Positions 596-13,037 of a stretch of DNA of 13,037 bases are shown here, piece after piece; the stretch's first letter is position 1, and each line of letters opens with the position of its first letter. The DNA lies in the IMG/VR virus record IMGVR_UViG_2617270938_000002; one strand, given 5' to 3'. The position numbers and the translations under genes were made by a program. The DNA comes from a virus. Taxonomy: Duplodnaviria > Heunggongvirae > Uroviricota > Caudoviricetes. The notes below the pieces were generated by a model, which worked only from the letters and a program-made list of their open reading frames with translations, ran no database searches and was not told the DNA's origin.

Positions 596-1195
596 TCAGA
601 ACTTATAACCGACACCCATGATGAAACCGTCAGTGCGCCAGTCACCACTGCCGGAGCCTTCATAAGCAATATCAATGGCCACGGATTCGGTCGGGTTAAA
701 CTGCACGCCAGCCCCCCACGCCAGAGACGTGTTGCTGCGGCGACCGTCATCACTTCCGGTCAGCACGTCGTGCGTTTTCCCCTTGTTGTCAGTTACGCGG
801 AGATAATCCCCGGAGAAAGTCGACACACGGCTGTAAGCCACACCCGCCATCGCATACGCGCTGAACCATTCATTCACGCGCACAGACGGCCCCGCCATTA
901 CGCTGAACCAGCGGTTACGAACGGAATCTTCATGCCAGCGGGTATCGCTGTAACGGGTAAGCTGGCGATTCTTGTCTCCTGCATAGCTGAATGACGTCAC
1001 CAGCCCCAGTGTGTCCGTAAACTCATAACGGTATTTCACGTTAATCCCGTTCAGATCATCGCTGCCGGGAACGTTGGTCCGGGCATGAAGATACCCCGCG
1101 CTCAGCGTGGACTGATGTTCAGATGCCCATGCAGGCGCACCGGATACGGCCAGACAAATGGCTGCGGACAAAATGGCGGCATAAAGTTTACGCAT
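596..1195 (-). CDS. lom: Lom outer-membrane protein (Ail/Lom/PagC family), 199 aa
   Basis: ORF translation has a signal-peptide-like N-terminus ([24 protein letters not shown]) and a C-terminal aromatic residue (GVGYKF) typical of beta-barrel outer-membrane proteins; overall resemblance to lambda Lom; sits between J and stf as in lambda; GAGAGGT Shine-Dalgarno upstream. Confidence 0.9.
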
Positions 1196-5743: not shown

Positions 5744-6073
5744 CTATGCCACGACCTGTTCAAAATCTGCCGTTATGGTTACCCACAACGCCCCCACGCT
5801 TGCCGACCATTTACGACAAACCACCCTGATCGGCTTCCAGTCATAAGGTGGCGTCCACTGAAATGCGCGGACGCCACCGTGCCGTTCCAGAAAGGCTTTT
5901 AAAGATGGGTGTTCACATTTACGAACACGTATCGTCACGCTGTAAGTCGACAACTGGTTATTCAGTCCCGCCGCACGACGCTGTTCATAACCATCGCCCA
6001 GCTTCACTGTCACCACTTTCGGCTCTGATACCACATTCATATCCGGGCGCACTTTCCAGTGAAACGTCTCCAT
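5744..6073 (-). CDS. M: Minor tail protein M, 109 aa
   Basis: Translation METFHWKVRPDMNVVSEPKVVTVKLGDGYEQRRAAGLNNQL... matches lambda M; same length; start overlaps the H-fragment stop (TAATG). Confidence 0.9.
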   Translation of the reverse strand: METFHWKVRPDMNVVSEPKVVTVKLGDGYEQRRAAGLNNQLSTYSVTIRVRKCEHPSLKAFLERHGGVRAFQWTPPYDWKPIRVVCRKWSASVGALWVTITADFEQVVA

Positions 6074-7083
6074 TACCGATATGCTCCACTTAACCGACCA
6101 CCATCACGGGCCTGCTGTTGCATAAAGTCCGCTGCCGCTTTTTTCCCAAGGTCATAAACCACCTTCAGGGCAGCCGGACCTATCTGCCCGTTCGTGCCAT
6201 CGTTATTGATCTCGATGTTGTACTGCGGGGCAAACATCGCCATACCTGAACCACCAATATCCGCCACAACCCCCAGCTTACCGTCAGCACCACGACGCAG
6301 TGGCAGAATGGCTTCAGGTCCAGCTTCCCCCATCACACCCGCGCCTTTTGCAAAAGCAAAAAACGTCGGACGGTTAACCACCGTGCCACTGTAACGACTC
6401 AAATCAGCAGACTGATAAATCCCCCCATTGGCATTCAGGGAAAGGCTGCTGAGATCAAATCCCAGTACACTGCCAATCCCTTTTATCGATTTCATCATGG
6501 TTGCCTGCGCCAGGATTTTCGCCATATCTGACAGCACCGAAGAGGTGAAGGATTTGAAGTTGAGTTTGCCGGTAGTGACAAAAGTTGCCAGGCCATTTCC
6601 CATGTTGCTGAAGGCTGACGAGAACCCCTGTTCTGCTGTTCCTGCCGTATTGTCTGCATCCACGGTAAAATCCTGAAATGCACGCAGGACTCCGTTTTTC
6701 CAGTTACCCTGCACAACTTCAAGCTGTTGCCAGTAACGGCGATTCTCATTCAGTTGTCGGTTCAGGCTCTCCGTCAGCGCCTGCTCGGCCTTTCTGTAGT
6801 CATCCGTGTTATATGTCCCTTTCTGCTCACTATCCCGCCTCAACTGCTCCAGCTGTTGCTGGTATTTCTGGCGAAGACTCAGTTGTACCTGATATCGCTG
6901 CCGCTGCTGATCACCCATACCGCCAATAACCCCGCCAAGCATCATGCCTTTCGGTGACATCAGAGTGTCTATCCATCCGGCACGGTTAGCCAGCGTTATC
7001 CCGGATCCCCTCACAGACGGATTGCGCCCGGAGCGTGTCGCATTGTGGTCATGTTCTCGCTGTGCCAGTCGGAATGAGGCCAC
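6073..7083 (-). pseudogene. H: Tail tape-measure protein H, C-terminal fragment only (N-terminal part of the gene absent)
   Basis: The C-terminal part of the 336-aa ORF (INNDGTNGQIGPAALKVVYDLGKKAAADFMQQQARDGG) resembles the lambda H C-terminus and is followed directly by M. Lambda H is 853 aa, but only about 1 kb of gene is present here and the ORF's N-terminal residues do not look like tape-measure sequence. The upstream limit of the fragment is uncertain. Confidence 0.75.
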
Positions 7084-7368
7084 TGGCAGCCTTTTTCACG
7101 AAGTAACCAGCTTTCAAGACATTCCACGCCACCAGCACGACGGATCACTGCCTCATCGCGGAACACGGCCCGAACGGCAGGATCATCCGCCAGCGGTTGT
7201 GATGCCGCCGGAACGGCACCACTGGCGAAAGATGAATAACGCTCCGGCTCAGGCTCCAGCAGGACACGCCCCTGCATAAACAGGGGCATCAGCTCTGAAC
7301 CTGGCCTGAACAATACGATCCCCATACGCGGGGCAATTTCAGGGGTCAGTAGTGCTCTCACGGTCACC

Positions 7369-8166: not shown

Positions 8167-8216
8167 ACTTCGTTTCTCCTCTTAATCGGGCGGCTCCCCC
8201 CGCCGTTTTCTCGTAC

Positions 8217-8360
8217 TTACTGATAGTGATCTCGACCTTCCCTTCCGGGATATCCCAGCATGGTTGCCACCTCCTGATTGGTTGGCGGAAAGCCACGCTC
8301 TTTCTGATAAGAAATCAGCATATCCAGCACCTGCTGCTGGCATTGAGTTAACGTCGTCAT
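8217..8360 (-). CDS. 47-aa small ORF resembling the LexA N-terminal DNA-binding domain
   Basis: Translated by hand (not in the ORF track, which omits ORFs below about 60 aa): MTTLTQCQQQVLDMLISYQKERGFPPTNQEVATMLGYPGREGRDHYQ. Compare LexA N-terminus ...[34 protein letters not shown]. ATG at 8360 overlaps the stop of the upstream gene (TAATG). Could be a gene fragment. Confidence 0.4.
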   Translation of the reverse strand: MTTLTQCQQQVLDMLISYQKERGFPPTNQEVATMLGYPGREGRDHYQ

Positions 8361-8848
8361 TACGCCCCCACGTAATTCCCTGACAGATACCACTCATCAC
8401 CCGATACAGCGCGCTTGCTGCTTTTCCGTAAACACTGCTCACGACGCGCCAGAAAATTGTTTCGTTCTGGCTGGGAGTGGCTTTCACGGAATGCCTCCAT
8501 CCACACCGTTGCAGCTCGACGGTATAAGCCCCTGGACTCCAGTTCTTCCGCCTGGCGGGTCAGGCACAAAATCACCCGCGGGTCGTTAGTGCCGACATAG
8601 AAATTGCGCACAGGTCTGGTTTCACGAACTGGTTGTGGTTCCGGATCCTGCGCTCTCTCAGTCAGGCGCGGGAAATGTCTGTGTGTATCTCCTTCACAAC
8701 GGTGAGCCACACGCCCACTCTGACGTAACTTGCTTGCTGACTGCAGAACGCGCTGCCGTGAGTAACCTGCAAAAGCATCCGCAATGTCTCCGGAAGTACA
8801 GCCCGGATGGGCTTCAATGAATTTCTGAACGTCATTCAAAAGACTCAT
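8360..8848 (-). CDS. Putative PerC-family regulator, about 162 aa
   Basis: C-terminal segment LESRGLYRRAATVWMEAF resembles the conserved PerC/Pch motif (L-E-x-x-G-L-W-R-R-A-A-x-x-W) as I remember it. ATG at 8848 has an AGGGGG Shine-Dalgarno 5-6 nt upstream, inside the 3' end of the O-like gene; the ORF track starts it at a GTG at 8854. Confidence 0.5.
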   Translation of the reverse strand: MSLLNDVQKFIEAHPGCTSGDIADAFAGYSRQRVLQSASKLRQSGRVAHRCEGDTHRHFPRLTERAQDPEPQPVRETRPVRNFYVGTNDPRVILCLTRQAEELESRGLYRRAATVWMEAFRESHSQPERNNFLARREQCLRKSSKRAVSGDEWYLSGNYVGA

Positions 8849-9801: not shown

Positions 9802-10140
9802 CTACTTCCCTGAATTTACGACGAAACTGTTCGAGCGGGCTGAAGCACTCATGCTCATAGCCTTCGCGGAGGTAGATAACCCGTTGTGTTTCCGGCTCCC
9901 AACGAATGACTCTGACGGGCACTCCGTAGTGATCTTTGAACCAGCGGTTAACTTGTCGCAAAGGACTGTCTCCTTCTGCCGGTTGAAATCACCCACAGCC
10001 CACTCTGCAAAGCTGTGGGTTACAATTTCCCTGTCACCTGGTACATTTACTGCATAGCAATACTCCACCTTCGCTTTTCCACCCGGTACAGGAAGCGCAA
10101 TCAGTTGCGAGCGACGGTAGTGTGTTGTTAAACTGTTCAT
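9802..10140 (-). CDS. Hypothetical protein, 112 aa
   Basis: ORF tightly packed between neighbours: its start overlaps the upstream gene stop (ATGA at 10137-10140) and its 3' end supplies a GAGGT Shine-Dalgarno for the O-like gene. The C-terminal third is low complexity, so the call is weak. Confidence 0.4.
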
Positions 10141-10700
10141 GCGTTAGTTTCTCCACAGTCACGACACGCCACGGCGCCCGGAGCTGCACACTCGCGGGCG
10201 TCATTACTTTCTGAAATGCAAAAAATTTTGTAGACCAGTGCTGCATGCTCCTGCAGCTTCGAAATTGAGAGGTACAGCTCGTCGTTAATTGCTGTCTTCT
10301 CATTCGGTTCCACTACACCGTCTTCAATTGCTGAACGAATCTGTTTTGAATAACTGCCGATCTGTTCAATGACTTCCAGCAGGCGCTGGTTTATATCGGC
10401 GTTCTCTACTTCCTCAATTTCAGGAAGCGATACGAACACCCCACCAGCAGACTGTGCGACAGCATCCGCAATGTAGTGAGTGCCAGCCGCGCGCTGTAAA
10501 ACCATTGCCCATCCCAGCGGGAAAATCTGATCGCCATAGGCACGAAGGCGGTTAAATAATGCGTTCTCTGTTACATCCAGCCAGTCAGCTGCTTCAGCGT
10601 AACCACCCGGCAACGCTGCGATAGTTTTTCTGACAGCTTTCACGTACCACTCAGGCTGTTTTTCTACTTTCCAGTGATACTTACCCACGGTTAGCCTCAT
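10137..10700 (-). CDS. Hypothetical regulatory protein at the cII position (possibly CII/YdaT-like), 187 aa, Cys-rich C-terminus
   Basis: Second gene of the rightward operon, directly after the cro-like gene. C-terminus [17 protein letters not shown] contains CxxC-like spacing. Family assignment is uncertain; an alternative GTG start at 10688 has a better Shine-Dalgarno. Confidence 0.45.
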
Positions 10701-10731
10701 CGTTCTGTGGTTAAAAATTGAAGGTGTTCTG

Positions 10732-10932
10732 TTAATCTTTCGGATAGATATCCGGTCTTAAGTCAGATTTCGTAATTGCACCTGACGTGCATTGCTCAAG
10801 TTTTTTAGCCAGCACAAAACTGGCTTTTTTATAACCATTGAAAACCAGCCGTAAGTAGCCAGGTGTTGAGCCAACTTTTCCGGCCAACTCGCCCTGCTGT
10901 TCTTTGGTTAAAGAGTCCCAATACGCTTTCAT
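10732..10932 (-). CDS. Cro-like / YdaS-family HTH regulator, 66 aa
   Basis: MKAYWDSLTKEQQGELAGKVGSTPGYLRLVFNGYKKASFVLAKKLEQCTSGAITKSDLRPDIYPKD; the C-terminal LRPDI motif and HTH-like core resemble YdaS-type Cro analogues (from memory). ATG at 10932 is preceded by GGAGGT at a 9-nt spacing. The ORF-track version (10732..11037) would overlap the cI start, so the internal start is preferred. Confidence 0.6.
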   Translation of the reverse strand: MKAYWDSLTKEQQGELAGKVGSTPGYLRLVFNGYKKASFVLAKKLEQCTSGAITKSDLRPDIYPKD

Positions 10933-11022
10933 ACAATATGTACCTCCGGTATACATATTACATGATTGAAATGAACCTTCAAGATACTTGTACCTTATCG
11001 GTACAAAGGTTTTAATTTCGTT
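10933..11022. promoter_or_regulatory. Immunity-region switch (OR-like): divergent promoters plus two 17-bp operator-like sites
   Basis: Sites TGTACC-tccgg-TATACA (10939-10955) and TGTACC-ttatc-GGTACA (10989-11005; the arms extend to a TTGTACC/GGTACAA inverted repeat). Candidate pR on minus strand: -35 TTGAAG (10977-10982), -10 TAATAT (10955-10960), 16-bp spacer. Candidate pRM on plus strand: -35 TTGTAC (10988-10993), -10 TTTAAT (11011-11016), 17-bp spacer, which would give a near-leaderless cI mRNA. Confidence 0.5.
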
Positions 11023-11697
11023 ATGAAAACAATCCATGACATCCGGCGGTCTAACGCCAGAAAACTGAGAGATGGTGTTGGCGGAAATTCATCCTTTGCC
11101 ACCATGATTGATCGCGAGCCAACCCAAACCAGCAGGTTTATGGGGGATGGCGCTACTAAAAATATCGGTGACAGCATGGCACGGCACATCGAAAAATGTT
11201 TCGACCTGCCTGTCGGATGGCTTGATCAAGAACACCAGACAACGAACATCACAAAAAAACCTGATGTTTCAATCACTAACAAACAAATAACGTTAGTCCC
11301 TGTCATATCATGGGTACAGGCCGGAGCATGGAAAGAAGTTGGCTATTCTGAGGTTGATTTGAGCACAGCAGAAACGTATCCCTGCCCTGTACCCTGTGGC
11401 GAAATGACTTATATCTTGCGGGTGATTGGTGATTCAATGATTGATGAGTACCGCCCTGGAGACATGATTTTTGTTGATCCCGAAGTCCCTGCCTGCCACG
11501 GTGACGACGTTATTGCATTGATGCACGATACAGGCGAAACCACCTTCAAGCGATTGATAGAAGATGGAACACAGCGTTATCTCAAAGCATTAAACCCAAA
11601 CTGGCCTGAGCCTTACATTAAGATTAACGGTAATTGCTCTATAATTGGTACAGTGATTTTCTCGGGAAAACCAAGAAGATACACAATAAAGGCCTAA
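11023..11697 (+). CDS. CI-like prophage repressor with C-terminal S24 (LexA-like) autopeptidase domain, 224 aa
   Basis: C-terminal domain has an Ala-Gly cleavage-site candidate (WVQAGAWKE), the catalytic Ser context (VIGDSMIDEY) and the Lys context (TFKRLIEDG), closely paralleling lambda CI (GNSM ... FKKL). Divergently arranged with the cro-like gene. Confidence 0.8.
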   Translation: MKTIHDIRRSNARKLRDGVGGNSSFATMIDREPTQTSRFMGDGATKNIGDSMARHIEKCFDLPVGWLDQEHQTTNITKKPDVSITNKQITLVPVISWVQAGAWKEVGYSEVDLSTAETYPCPVPCGEMTYILRVIGDSMIDEYRPGDMIFVDPEVPACHGDDVIALMHDTGETTFKRLIEDGTQRYLKALNPNWPEPYIKINGNCSIIGTVIFSGKPRRYTIKA

Positions 11698-11709
11698 TCA
11701 ATATTTATG

Positions 11710-11733
11710 AACCTGCTTCGGCAGGTTTTTTTA
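11710..11733 (+). terminator. Rho-independent terminator after the cI-like gene
   Basis: Stem AACCTGC (11710-11716), loop TTCG, stem GCAGGTT (11721-11727), followed by a T-run through 11732. Confidence 0.7.
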
Positions 11734-11736
11734 TAC

Positions 11737-11769
11737 TTGACAATGTACCCATGAGATACATAATGTATC
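11737..11769 (+). promoter_or_regulatory. pL-like early-left promoter with overlapping operator
   Basis: Consensus -35 TTGACA (11737-11742); -10 candidate CATAAT (11759-11764) with a 16-bp spacer; operator-like TGTACC-catga-GATACA (11744-11760) with the same architecture as the two OR-region sites; perfect 15-bp palindrome GATACATAATGTATC (11755-11769) over the -10. Confidence 0.55.
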
Positions 11770-12202
11770 TAAAAGAAACATAACACAGGCAAGATTAAAA
11801 CAAAATTTGGTTGTAACACGGCGTATGGCACATGCGTCGTTAGCGGTCTGGTGACGTTAAAGGGGACAATCCACTCCTTGCTCGAGCAAACAAACCAGGT
11901 AGCCGGAATGTGCAAGTCAATGATGATGCTGATAAGACGCCTAACCAGCGTGGCGATTCGGTTTGACGCCTGGGAAGAGACCAGGGTGCAACGATGAGGG
12001 CATTTATGGAACCGCGACAAAGTGTGGTGCCGTAACTGGCTAAGTGCTCTCAGCGTTGTGGTGAATGCGCAGACTGATGCGCGAAAGACATTGCAGCTAT
12101 TGCGGAAAAGAGCTGTTCGGCGGGGCAATTAAACGCCCGTGAGAGTCTGAAATAACCGCAAGCCGGAGATCAGCACCGGTCACCACAACAGCCACTGCTT
12201 TG

Positions 12203-12337
12203 GCGGTACCAGTTTGTACACTTGCTTCCGGCTGGTACCGCTCTTTTTACAAAACAGAGAAGAGCATCACCGGACGACGGGCTCATAACCCAATCCATCC
12301 GGGCGGCTGCCACCGCAGGTGTTCTTCTCTGTTTTGT
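12203..12337 (+). promoter_or_regulatory. Structured leader elements upstream of the first early-left gene: two inverted repeats and a boxA-like motif
   Basis: Inverted repeat A: GCGGTACCAG (12203-12212) / CTGGTACCGC (12232-12241). BoxA-like CGCTCTTTTTA (12239-12249). Inverted repeat B: ACAAAACAGAGAAGAGC (12249-12265) / GTTCTTCTCTGTTTTGT (12321-12337), 17 bp with one G-T position, enclosing 55 nt. Function not established. Confidence 0.4.
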
Positions 12338-12385
12338 GGAGAAACTAATCGGCCTTGCAGGGTCGATATGATGAGGAGCAGCAAA

Positions 12386-12748
12386 ATGGCTAGCGAACGC
12401 AGTACTGATGTGCAGGCATTTATCGGGGAGCTGGACGGCGGCGTATTTGAAACCAAAATCGGCGCAGTTCTCAGTGAAGTCGCTTCCGGTGTGATGAACA
12501 CGAAAACCAAAGGTAAGGTCTCACTCAACCTGGAAATCGAACCATTTGATGAGAACCGTGTGAAAATCAAACACAAACTCTCATATGTTCGCCCGACTAA
12601 CCGCGGGAAAATTTCCGAAGAAGACACCACCGAAACGCCGATGTATGTCAATCGCGGTGGTCGCCTGACTATTCTGCAGGAAGACCAGGGACAATTACTG
12701 ACTCTTGCCGGTGAACCTGACGGAAAACTCCGCGCAGCAGGTCATTAA
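12386..12748 (+). CDS. Hypothetical early-left protein, 120 aa
   Basis: ATG at 12386 preceded by GAGGAG (12373-12378) at a 7-nt spacing. The ORF-track ORF 12200..12748 begins at a TTG and its first 62 residues are Cys/Arg-rich junk overlapping the leader stems, so the internal ATG is preferred. No family recognised. Confidence 0.6.
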   Translation: MASERSTDVQAFIGELDGGVFETKIGAVLSEVASGVMNTKTKGKVSLNLEIEPFDENRVKIKHKLSYVRPTNRGKISEEDTTETPMYVNRGGRLTILQEDQGQLLTLAGEPDGKLRAAGH

Positions 12749-12813
12749 TATCGTTCTTAATAAACTGATTATTTATCTCATCACTGAATATCTTTATATA
12801 GTGAGGACTTATT

Positions 12814-13037
12814 ATGTCTCAGAACTTAGACGCAACCGCAATTAATCAAATCCATGCCCTTATTTCTGCTCAGGGTGTTAATGAAATTATCAGTAAGATT
12901 GGTGCCGATGCTGTGGCATTGCCTGAGAATTTCCGCATTCATGATCTGGAAAAATTTAATTTAAATCGCTTCCGTTTCCGTGGTGCGCTTTCCACTGCCA
13001 GCATCGATGACTTTACCCGTTATTCTAAAGATCTTGC
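12814..13037 (+). CDS. Hypothetical protein, N-terminal 74 codons; gene runs off the right edge of the window
   Basis: ATG at 12814 preceded by GAGGA at about 7 nt; open to the window end ([74 protein letters not shown]...). Not in the ORF track because there is no stop in the window. No family recognised. Confidence 0.55.

Follow-up and report, generated by a model that had tools for sequence, protein, structure and literature searches.

The closest described counterparts of the immunity region considered here are those of the cryptic prophage e14, in Escherichia coli K-12, and of the Shigella phage SfV. In a differential RNA-seq map of K-12, the transcription start site (TSS) of the e14 repressor gene ymfK is the first base of its start codon, a leader length of 0, which places ymfK among five leaderless E. 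coli mRNAs in that map (PMC4681348, Fig 2E and Table S3); in uninduced cells no TSS was recorded for ymfT or ymfJ (PMC4681348). Late in the SOS response the e14 genes ymfJ, in the pL arm, ymfM, in the PR arm, and also intE show an induction of about 16-28-fold (log2 4-4.8), their rise beginning only from about 50 min, about 40 min after LexA targets, and the authors attributed this late induction to a CI-like repressor (PMC11002266). YmfM has been described as an SOS-inducible division inhibitor (bioRxiv 10.1101/2020.11.19.390815), and forced expression of the croE operon leads to filamentation (PMC6018989). For the phage members of the group, the GenBank record of SfV (U82619) marks a "putative operator region", the record of phage Ayreon has a promoter annotated after the cI terminator, and the SfIV paper reports that SfV-type phages are without N, cII and cIII. 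The SfV and e14 genome papers aside, searches of the literature turned up no footprint, EMSA, ChIP or reporter experiment on this repressor.

The window (the whole stretch of DNA analysed, 13,037 nucleotides) houses a region of this kind. Its cI gene, of ymfK/cohE type (11023-11697, plus strand), encodes a 224-residue protein identical at 223 of 224 positions to YmfK/CohE of K-12 e14 (the difference being T221K) and at 222 of 224 to SfV cI, while the divergent cro gene, of ymfT/croE type (10732-10932, minus strand), encodes 66 residues that are identical at 66/66 positions to SfV Cro and at 65/66 to K-12 YmfT; Pfam matches of this Cro to YdaS_toxin and HTH_3 are weak. The surrounding 1.7 kb are 96-99% identical in DNA to phages 2H10, Ayreon, cdtI, a set of Stx2c phages, SfV and SfIV; among 5426 complete E. 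coli genomes, 3087 have a match, with the genes labelled ymfK, ymfT and ymfL by PGAP. As in e14 and SfV, cro is followed by a gene for a ymfL-like CII/CP76 protein (10137-10700, minus strand; PF06892), an early gene of the PR operon, and by a ymfM-like gene of the same operon (9802-10140, minus strand), whose product, a predicted cell-division inhibitor, is identical to K-12 YmfM at 110 of 112 positions. Because cI is one residue removed from YmfK and Cro equals that of SfV, the immunity type, which the earlier note had left unassigned, can be given as e14/SfV, an assignment to an already described type that draws on the near-identity of repressor, Cro and operators; the operator region annotated in U82619 corresponds to window positions 10938-11006, from the first through the second of the palindromes discussed below. 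All five putative operators lie at the same positions in e14 and SfV as in the window. The first of them, OR1, has one more mismatch here than in e14 (GTATACA versus GTGTACA), a variant common to SfV and Ayreon; OL2 has TGTATC in place of TGTACC, a variant common to Ayreon; and in the pL leader (11795-12200) the mosaic segment is not the one that SfV and e14 have.

The prophage around this region provides a different context from e14 and SfV, and its late genes have been lost. Between 7012 and 13037 the window matches, at 99.7-99.9% identity, a prophage in strain A0 34/86 in which Q, lysis and terminase genes are retained. To the left of 7012, a truncated DUF968 gene is joined to the C-terminal part of a tape-measure gene, after which come M, L, K, I, a shortened J and lom, so that the late regulatory gene Q, the lysis genes, the terminase/packaging genes and the head genes are deleted. 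The prophage is accordingly structurally defective, as had been suggested from the sequence. Among complete E. coli genomes there is no full-length match to the whole window, the best covering 81%.

The repressor contains an S24 domain, as the earlier note had stated (PF00717, Peptidase_S24, E=1.5e-26), with a predicted cleavage site at Ala100-Gly101 and predicted catalytic residues Ser138 and Lys176. In an alignment of 21 relatives these two residues are nearly invariant, and most of the relatives have the QAG-AW cleavage motif. The N-terminal domain was undetected by Pfam HTH models, and the helix-turn-helix is visible as a fold only: the AlphaFold model (AF2, mean pLDDT 77) has N-terminal helices at residues 4-19, 22-28, 33-40 and 50-59, the recognition helix lying at about residues 33-40 (PTQTSRFM), and its best match in the PDB is intact lambda repressor (3bdn_A, E=6e-9). 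By its Pfam match, these residues and the model together, cI has the make-up of a self-cleaving repressor of the lambda fold, joining an HTH to an S24 domain. The Rep protein of Salmonella phage SPC32H (PDB 5d50) has weak sequence similarity to cI (E=0.0018, residues 1-76) and a weak structural likeness in the N-terminal DNA-binding domain; according to the title of its PDB entry Rep is inactivated by an antirepressor, whereas the cI of the window has a canonical S24 domain.

Three 17-bp sites in the window fit the pattern TGTACC-N5-KRTACA, at 10939-10955, 10989-11005 and 11744-11760, exactly where the earlier note had placed them, and there is no other match in the 13 kb. The comparison with shuffled sequence that the note had proposed puts them far above chance, as not one of 200 dinucleotide-preserving shuffles contained any match. 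When up to two mismatches to TGTACC-N5-GGTACA were allowed, there was a single additional match, at 2355 (0.34 expected); with up to three mismatches there were 12 matches against 3.9 expected, five of the 12 clustered in two regulatory regions. A weight matrix trained only on the OR3 and OL1 sites of relatives outside E. coli ranked five sites highest in the window, namely OR3 (24.6 bits), OL1 (22.5), OL2 (15.0), OR1 (12.3) and OR2 (9.7); the sixth-best site scored 2.0 bits, and 0.09 sites of at least 9.7 bits are expected per window by chance. The middle OR site (10972-10988) surfaced only through comparison with relatives, and the second site at pL (11764-11780) was picked up by a repeat finder as well. 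A further OR site 20 bp from 10939 was sought by eye and none was seen, and a full-text literature search for four of the site sequences returned no paper. The proposal of an OR/OL-type switch is well supported as regards lambda-type operators around cI and cro, and the three sites said to make it complete do exist; the full set comprises five, of which three belong to OR and two to OL, OR2 and OL2 having been missed.

Three of the putative operators are packed into the 90-bp intergenic region between cI and cro, where they cover PR -10/+1, PR -35 and PRM -35, respectively. OR1 (10939-10955, TGTACCTCCGGTATACA) begins on the last base of the proposed PR -10 and spans the PR start region; it holds the cro Shine-Dalgarno sequence GGAGG (10943-10947, minus strand), and the TCC of its spacer is fixed because it forms this sequence, so that the overlap with both PR -10 and the cro ribosome-binding site noted earlier is borne out. 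OR2 (10972-10988, TGAACCTTCAAGATACT), a weaker site, lies over PR -35 and abuts OR3 (10989-11005, TGTACCTTATCGGTACA), a perfect palindrome that covers the PRM -35 hexamer TTGTAC, again as previously noted. OR2 and OR3 are 17 bp apart centre to centre with no gap between them, and their simultaneous occupancy may be hindered. Relative to the PRM start, the centres of OR3, OR2 and OR1 fall at -26, -43 and -76. On the other side of cI, OL1 (11744-11760, TGTACCCATGAGATACA) fills the spacer of pL, where the earlier note had also located it, and overlaps the -10 by 2 nt, and the weak OL2 (11764-11780, TGTATCTAAAAGAAACA), set 20 bp from OL1, starts on the final T of the pL -10 and continues across the start site.

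The promoters on which these sites lie differ in how they could be placed. PRM (10988-11023, plus strand) has its -35 at 10988-10993 (TTGTAC), its -10 at 11011-11016 (TTTAAT) and its +1 at the A of the cI ATG (11023). It was placed there, with the hexamers to match, because the window nearly matches K-12 over this region, only 3 of 106 bases differing between -100 and +6 of the cI ATG. In relatives a -10-like hexamer is found 6-9 nt, mostly 6-7 nt, upstream of the cI ATG, with no conserved Shine-Dalgarno sequence. The cI mRNA should therefore be leaderless, in the manner of lambda PRM, which agrees with the leaderless-type arrangement read earlier from the window and relies on the leader length of 0 published for the near-identical K-12 locus. 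PR (10955-10982, minus strand), with -35 TTGAAG (10982-10977) and -10 TAATAT (10960-10955) separated by a 16-bp spacer, has 8 of 12 consensus bases, under the threshold of the promoter scan; relatives have TTGnnG and CATAAT, TATAAT or TAATAT at these positions, and it is from this conservation that PR is assigned as a probable promoter. pL (11737-11764, plus strand), with -35 TTGACA (11737-11742), a 16-bp spacer and -10 CATAAT (11759-11764), has 11 of 12 consensus bases, and the sequence CTTGACAATGTACC-N5-GRTACATAATGTACC at pL is nearly invariant among Enterobacterales relatives. Between cI and pL lies an intrinsic terminator (11709-11735, plus strand; an 8-bp stem then a T run) that is annotated likewise in SfV and Ayreon. 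An Rfam search of 10700-13037 at a permissive threshold gave nothing beyond sub-threshold noise.

A protein search yielded a graded series of relatives, from 89% down to about 37% repressor identity, and an alignment of 21 of these led to 79 genomic loci. At all 30 loci with a full-length relative (42-100% identity), drawn from Escherichia, Klebsiella, Pantoea, Serratia, Proteus, Rosenbergiella, Salinicola, Halomonas and Salinivibrio, sites are present at -84 to -88, the position of OR1, and at -34 to -38 from the cI ATG, and a cro homologue is transcribed divergently from cI. Enterobacterales relatives have a further site 50-80 nt downstream of the cI stop codon. OR2 is found in most relatives at -51 to -53, as TGAACC-nnCAA-GGTACT, with TGTACC in Erwinia, Proteus and Halomonadaceae; its conservation is partly due to the embedded PR -35. 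OL2 appears in relatives as TGTACC-N5 followed by GAAACA, GCAACA or GGAACA, its left half conserved and its right half degenerate, and is absent from the Proteus and Rosenbergiella loci. At OR3 and OL1 of 24 loci outside E. coli, half-site positions carry about 2 bits and the 5-bp spacer 0.1-0.6 bits; considered separately, OR3 has half-sites of about 2 bits and a spacer of 0.2-0.6 bits in 23 distinct relatives, and OL1 half-sites of 2 bits and a spacer of 0.1-0.8 bits. Among 45 more distant loci, the six in which the repressor retains the helix REPTQxSR carry the sites, with offsets unchanged. In the remaining 39, about 5.6 kb per locus contained zero matches reaching 9 bits; their repressors either belong to the same family but have TNSSYLSQVR or REPSYISR as the helix, or combine a similar S24 domain with an unrelated HTH_3 N-terminal domain. 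Since the motif occurs only with repressors bearing the PTQxSR helix, it follows the DNA-reading head of the repressor, and very probably the 17-mers are where the lambda-like repressor of this prophage binds.

That reading has to be set against others, of which two have very little to recommend them. The palindromes might work at the RNA level, as hairpins or terminators, and not as DNA bound by a protein, and indeed the consensus scan flags 10988-11006 as terminator-like, with a 7-bp stem then AGGTTTTAAT. An RNA stem would covary, which disfavours this reading, since the bases of the "stem" are invariant without covariation and it is the "loop" that varies; invariant half-sites around a free spacer are rather the signature of a sequence-specific dimeric DNA-binding protein. 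The T run, moreover, is not conserved among relatives, and five copies of the sequence lie on promoter cores, with OR1 and OL1 at or upstream of start sites. The candidate hairpin at 10988-11006 was rejected on these grounds of conservation, and the reading as a whole is extremely improbable. Hardly any more credible is direct control of the promoters by host LexA through SOS boxes. This idea can appeal to published listings that count intE and ymfJ among LexA-regulated genes (see the discussion in PMC11002266), but no CTGT-N8-ACAG with up to one mismatch occurs in 10900-11800, so the region does not have the features of the LexA regulon; the TGT and ACA triplets of the 17-mer are 11 nt apart as against 8 nt in a LexA box, and the e14 genes respond about 40 min later than LexA targets do (PMC11002266). 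It is also improbable, though not to the same degree, that the principal reader of the palindromes is Cro (YmfT), or some other prophage regulator such as the CII-like YmfL, instead of the S24 repressor. Comparison cannot separate CI from Cro as reader of the motif, because both are conserved together with it at 30 of 30 loci, and in a switch of this sort both would be expected to bind the operators. Against a principal role for Cro or YmfL, the sites coincide with core elements of PR and pL, the places at which the maintenance repressor has to work; the motif vanishes when only the N-terminal domain or the helix of the repressor changes; and the arms of e14 are silent in lysogens and SOS-induced, which requires a cleavable S24 protein. 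A CII-type activator such as YmfL would, besides, not occupy -10 and +1.

More serious consideration is due to a reading that keeps the architecture and changes its logic, in which CI fills OR3 first and PRM is subject only to negative autoregulation, with no activation by CI, OR2 merely blocking PR -35 or excluding OR3. OR3 matches the consensus best, both in the window and in nearly all relatives, it lies over PRM -35 with its centre at -26 from the mapped TSS, and OR2 abuts it without a gap, all of which would suit such a circuit. On the other hand, the centre of OR2 at -43 fits the position from which lambda CI activates, the poor PRM -35 (TTGTAC) suggests a need for help, and a strong OR3 could serve Cro instead, as in lambda. 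The logic is thus considered rather unlikely, although by a good way the likeliest of the alternatives. It also weighs against a strictly lambda-like reading that OR3 is the best match to consensus and yet lies on PRM -35, where strict lambda logic would have the weakest CI site, and that PRM is active in K-12 lysogens despite this strongest match at OR3.

The preferred reading, which we hold with considerable confidence, is that the region is a lambdoid immunity switch of the e14/SfV family in which a CI-type repressor acts on five operators. Most likely a dimer of the 224-residue repressor (YmfK/CohE) occupies 17-bp operators of consensus TGTACC-N5-GGTACA. Occupation of OR1, OR2, OL1 and OL2 would keep both early operons off, that is, the PR operon of cro, ymfL, the division inhibitor gene ymfM and replication genes, and the pL operon, which runs from yfdP onward toward xis and int. 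cI itself would be produced from the leaderless PRM transcript. Repressor at OR2, whose centre at -43 from the PRM start is the position from which lambda CI activates PRM, could have the same effect here, and OR3, centred at -26, should repress PRM. On DNA damage, RecA-stimulated self-cleavage at Ala100-Gly101, by Ser138 and Lys176, would inactivate the repressor and release PR and pL together; Cro, which is expected on the same sites, would then turn PRM down. In this scheme we infer the identity of the binding protein, the order in which the sites are filled, cooperativity and any activation of PRM. The SOS inducibility that the earlier note claimed for an intact circuit is supported by proxy, through the late SOS induction of e14 in K-12, whose repressor differs by 1 residue.

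With lambda the locus would share divergent cI and cro genes, a tripartite OR of 17-bp pseudo-palindromes, a leaderless cI mRNA from PRM, a site whose centre is near -42/-43 of PRM (-42 for lambda OR2), a further operator set on pL, which is transcribed in the cI direction, and an S24 self-cleaving repressor with the lambda-repressor fold. The operator sequence is unrelated to that of lambda; OL has two sites here and three in lambda; and the sites are spaced at 33 and 17 bp in OR and at 20 bp in OL, compared with 23-24 bp for lambda. OR3 is the best match here and OR1 in lambda, where OR3 is the weakest CI site. There is no rexAB between cI and pL, in contrast to lambda, and no N gene was recognised. 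A closer parallel in the number of operators may be phage 933W, whose immunity region is reported (Tyler, Mills and Friedman 2004) to have three OR and two OL sites under the control of an S24 CI; its repressor and operator sequences differ from those here. The overlap of operators with both promoters of OR and the second set on pL place this region among lambdoid OR-OL switches. It is an ordinary, known switch of that class, and nothing about it challenges current understanding.

One broader suggestion can be offered tentatively. Immunity regions normally diversify fast, and a long-fixed operator code is unusual. The operator code TGTACC-N5-GGTACA, together with the PTQxSR helix, may have been fixed from Enterobacterales to Halomonadaceae and Vibrionaceae in a switch whose OR geometry is not that of lambda, which might use pure negative autoregulation or mutually exclusive OR2 and OR3, and which might give superinfection immunity across orders; this combination is regarded as doubtful, more so than the altered autoregulatory logic weighed above.

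For the biology of its host, the analogy with e14 suggests that a structurally dead prophage retains a DNA-damage-sensitive switch that would control YmfM, the FtsZ-directed inhibitor of cell division. The same region would probably confer immunity against phages of the SfV, cdtI, Stx2c and Ayreon types. More than half of the complete E. coli genomes contain the module, and the five-site map, with its promoter assignments, provides a basis for the design of studies on e14 CohE, a repressor that the accessible literature describes merely as "CI-like".

The predicted DNA-binding domain at the N-terminus of the repressor (residues 1-70, encoded by window 11023-11230) matches no helix-turn-helix model in Pfam, and the only PDB sequence match to it is a weak one, to Rep of Salmonella phage SPC32H (5d50, E=0.0018). 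A stand-alone homologue, 71 amino acids long and 59% identical, is encoded by Pseudomonas phage BR133a.

In loci from Salinicola, Halomonas, Salinivibrio and Phytohalomonas (L031-L035) the OR region is retained, but the end of cI is followed by the OL-type sites at a distance of 0.9-1.6 kb; extra genes thus occupy the space between cI and pL, as rexAB do in lambda. Where two OL-type sites score in these loci they are spaced by 33-34 bp rather than 20 bp; one locus, L034, has a single such site. In two loci from Rosenbergiella (L028 and L029) several half-sites read GGAACA/TGTTCC in place of GGTACA/TGTACC, and OR2 is the perfect palindrome AGTTCC-TTCAA-GGAACT. This may represent a small shift in specificity, alongside a repressor that is 57% identical. 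In E. coli SCPM-O-B-8794 (L004) the cro reading frame extends to 235 codons as against 66, the probable cause being a frameshift or fusion in that strain.

Compared with the prophage of A0 34/86, the window lacks Q and the genes for lysis, terminase, head and most of the tail. A deletion junction lies at window ~7012, within the minus-strand ORFs 6073-7083 and 7011-7367, where a DUF968 gene has been cut short and fused to the C-terminal portion of a tape-measure gene of the lambda type. At 8251/8252 a further 537 bp are deleted relative to the related locus L003, so that the RusA gene is mostly lost and a small 'LexA family' gene is without its 3' portion; the ORF of 101 amino acids at 8182-8487 is probably the remnant. 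A gene for an Ail/Lom family outer-membrane protein (596-1195, minus strand) adjoins the shortened J gene. The third gene of the PR operon (9802-10140, minus strand), in a prophage no longer able to make virions, encodes a homologue of YmfM, the cell-division inhibitor of e14, with 110 of 112 residues identical.

Directly downstream of OL2, a leader motif, ACAGGCAGGACGCCCACGAAGTA, is kept across genera, being found in e14 of K-12 (L083), in SfV (L001) and in many of the loci L007-L023; its role may be that of a 5'-UTR element or of a nut/put-like signal. The window lacks this motif and has another segment after OL2. The stretch 11795-12200 is common to Ayreon and the A0 34/86 prophage, and is replaced in SfV and e14. 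About 600 nt (window 11781-12385) separate pL from the first annotated gene, the yfdP-like gene with its ATG at 12386, and no convincing ORF was found in this interval. It does contain, at ~12205-12250, a strong hairpin followed by a U run, GCGGUACCAG...CUGGUACCGC UCUUUUU (-36.8 kcal/mol, z=-3.0). A second, RNA- or termination-based immunity has been reported in SfV (Roberts et al. 2007, as cited in PMC3475682). Given the hairpin and U run, transcripts from pL would be confronted by a terminator before they reached the cargo genes.
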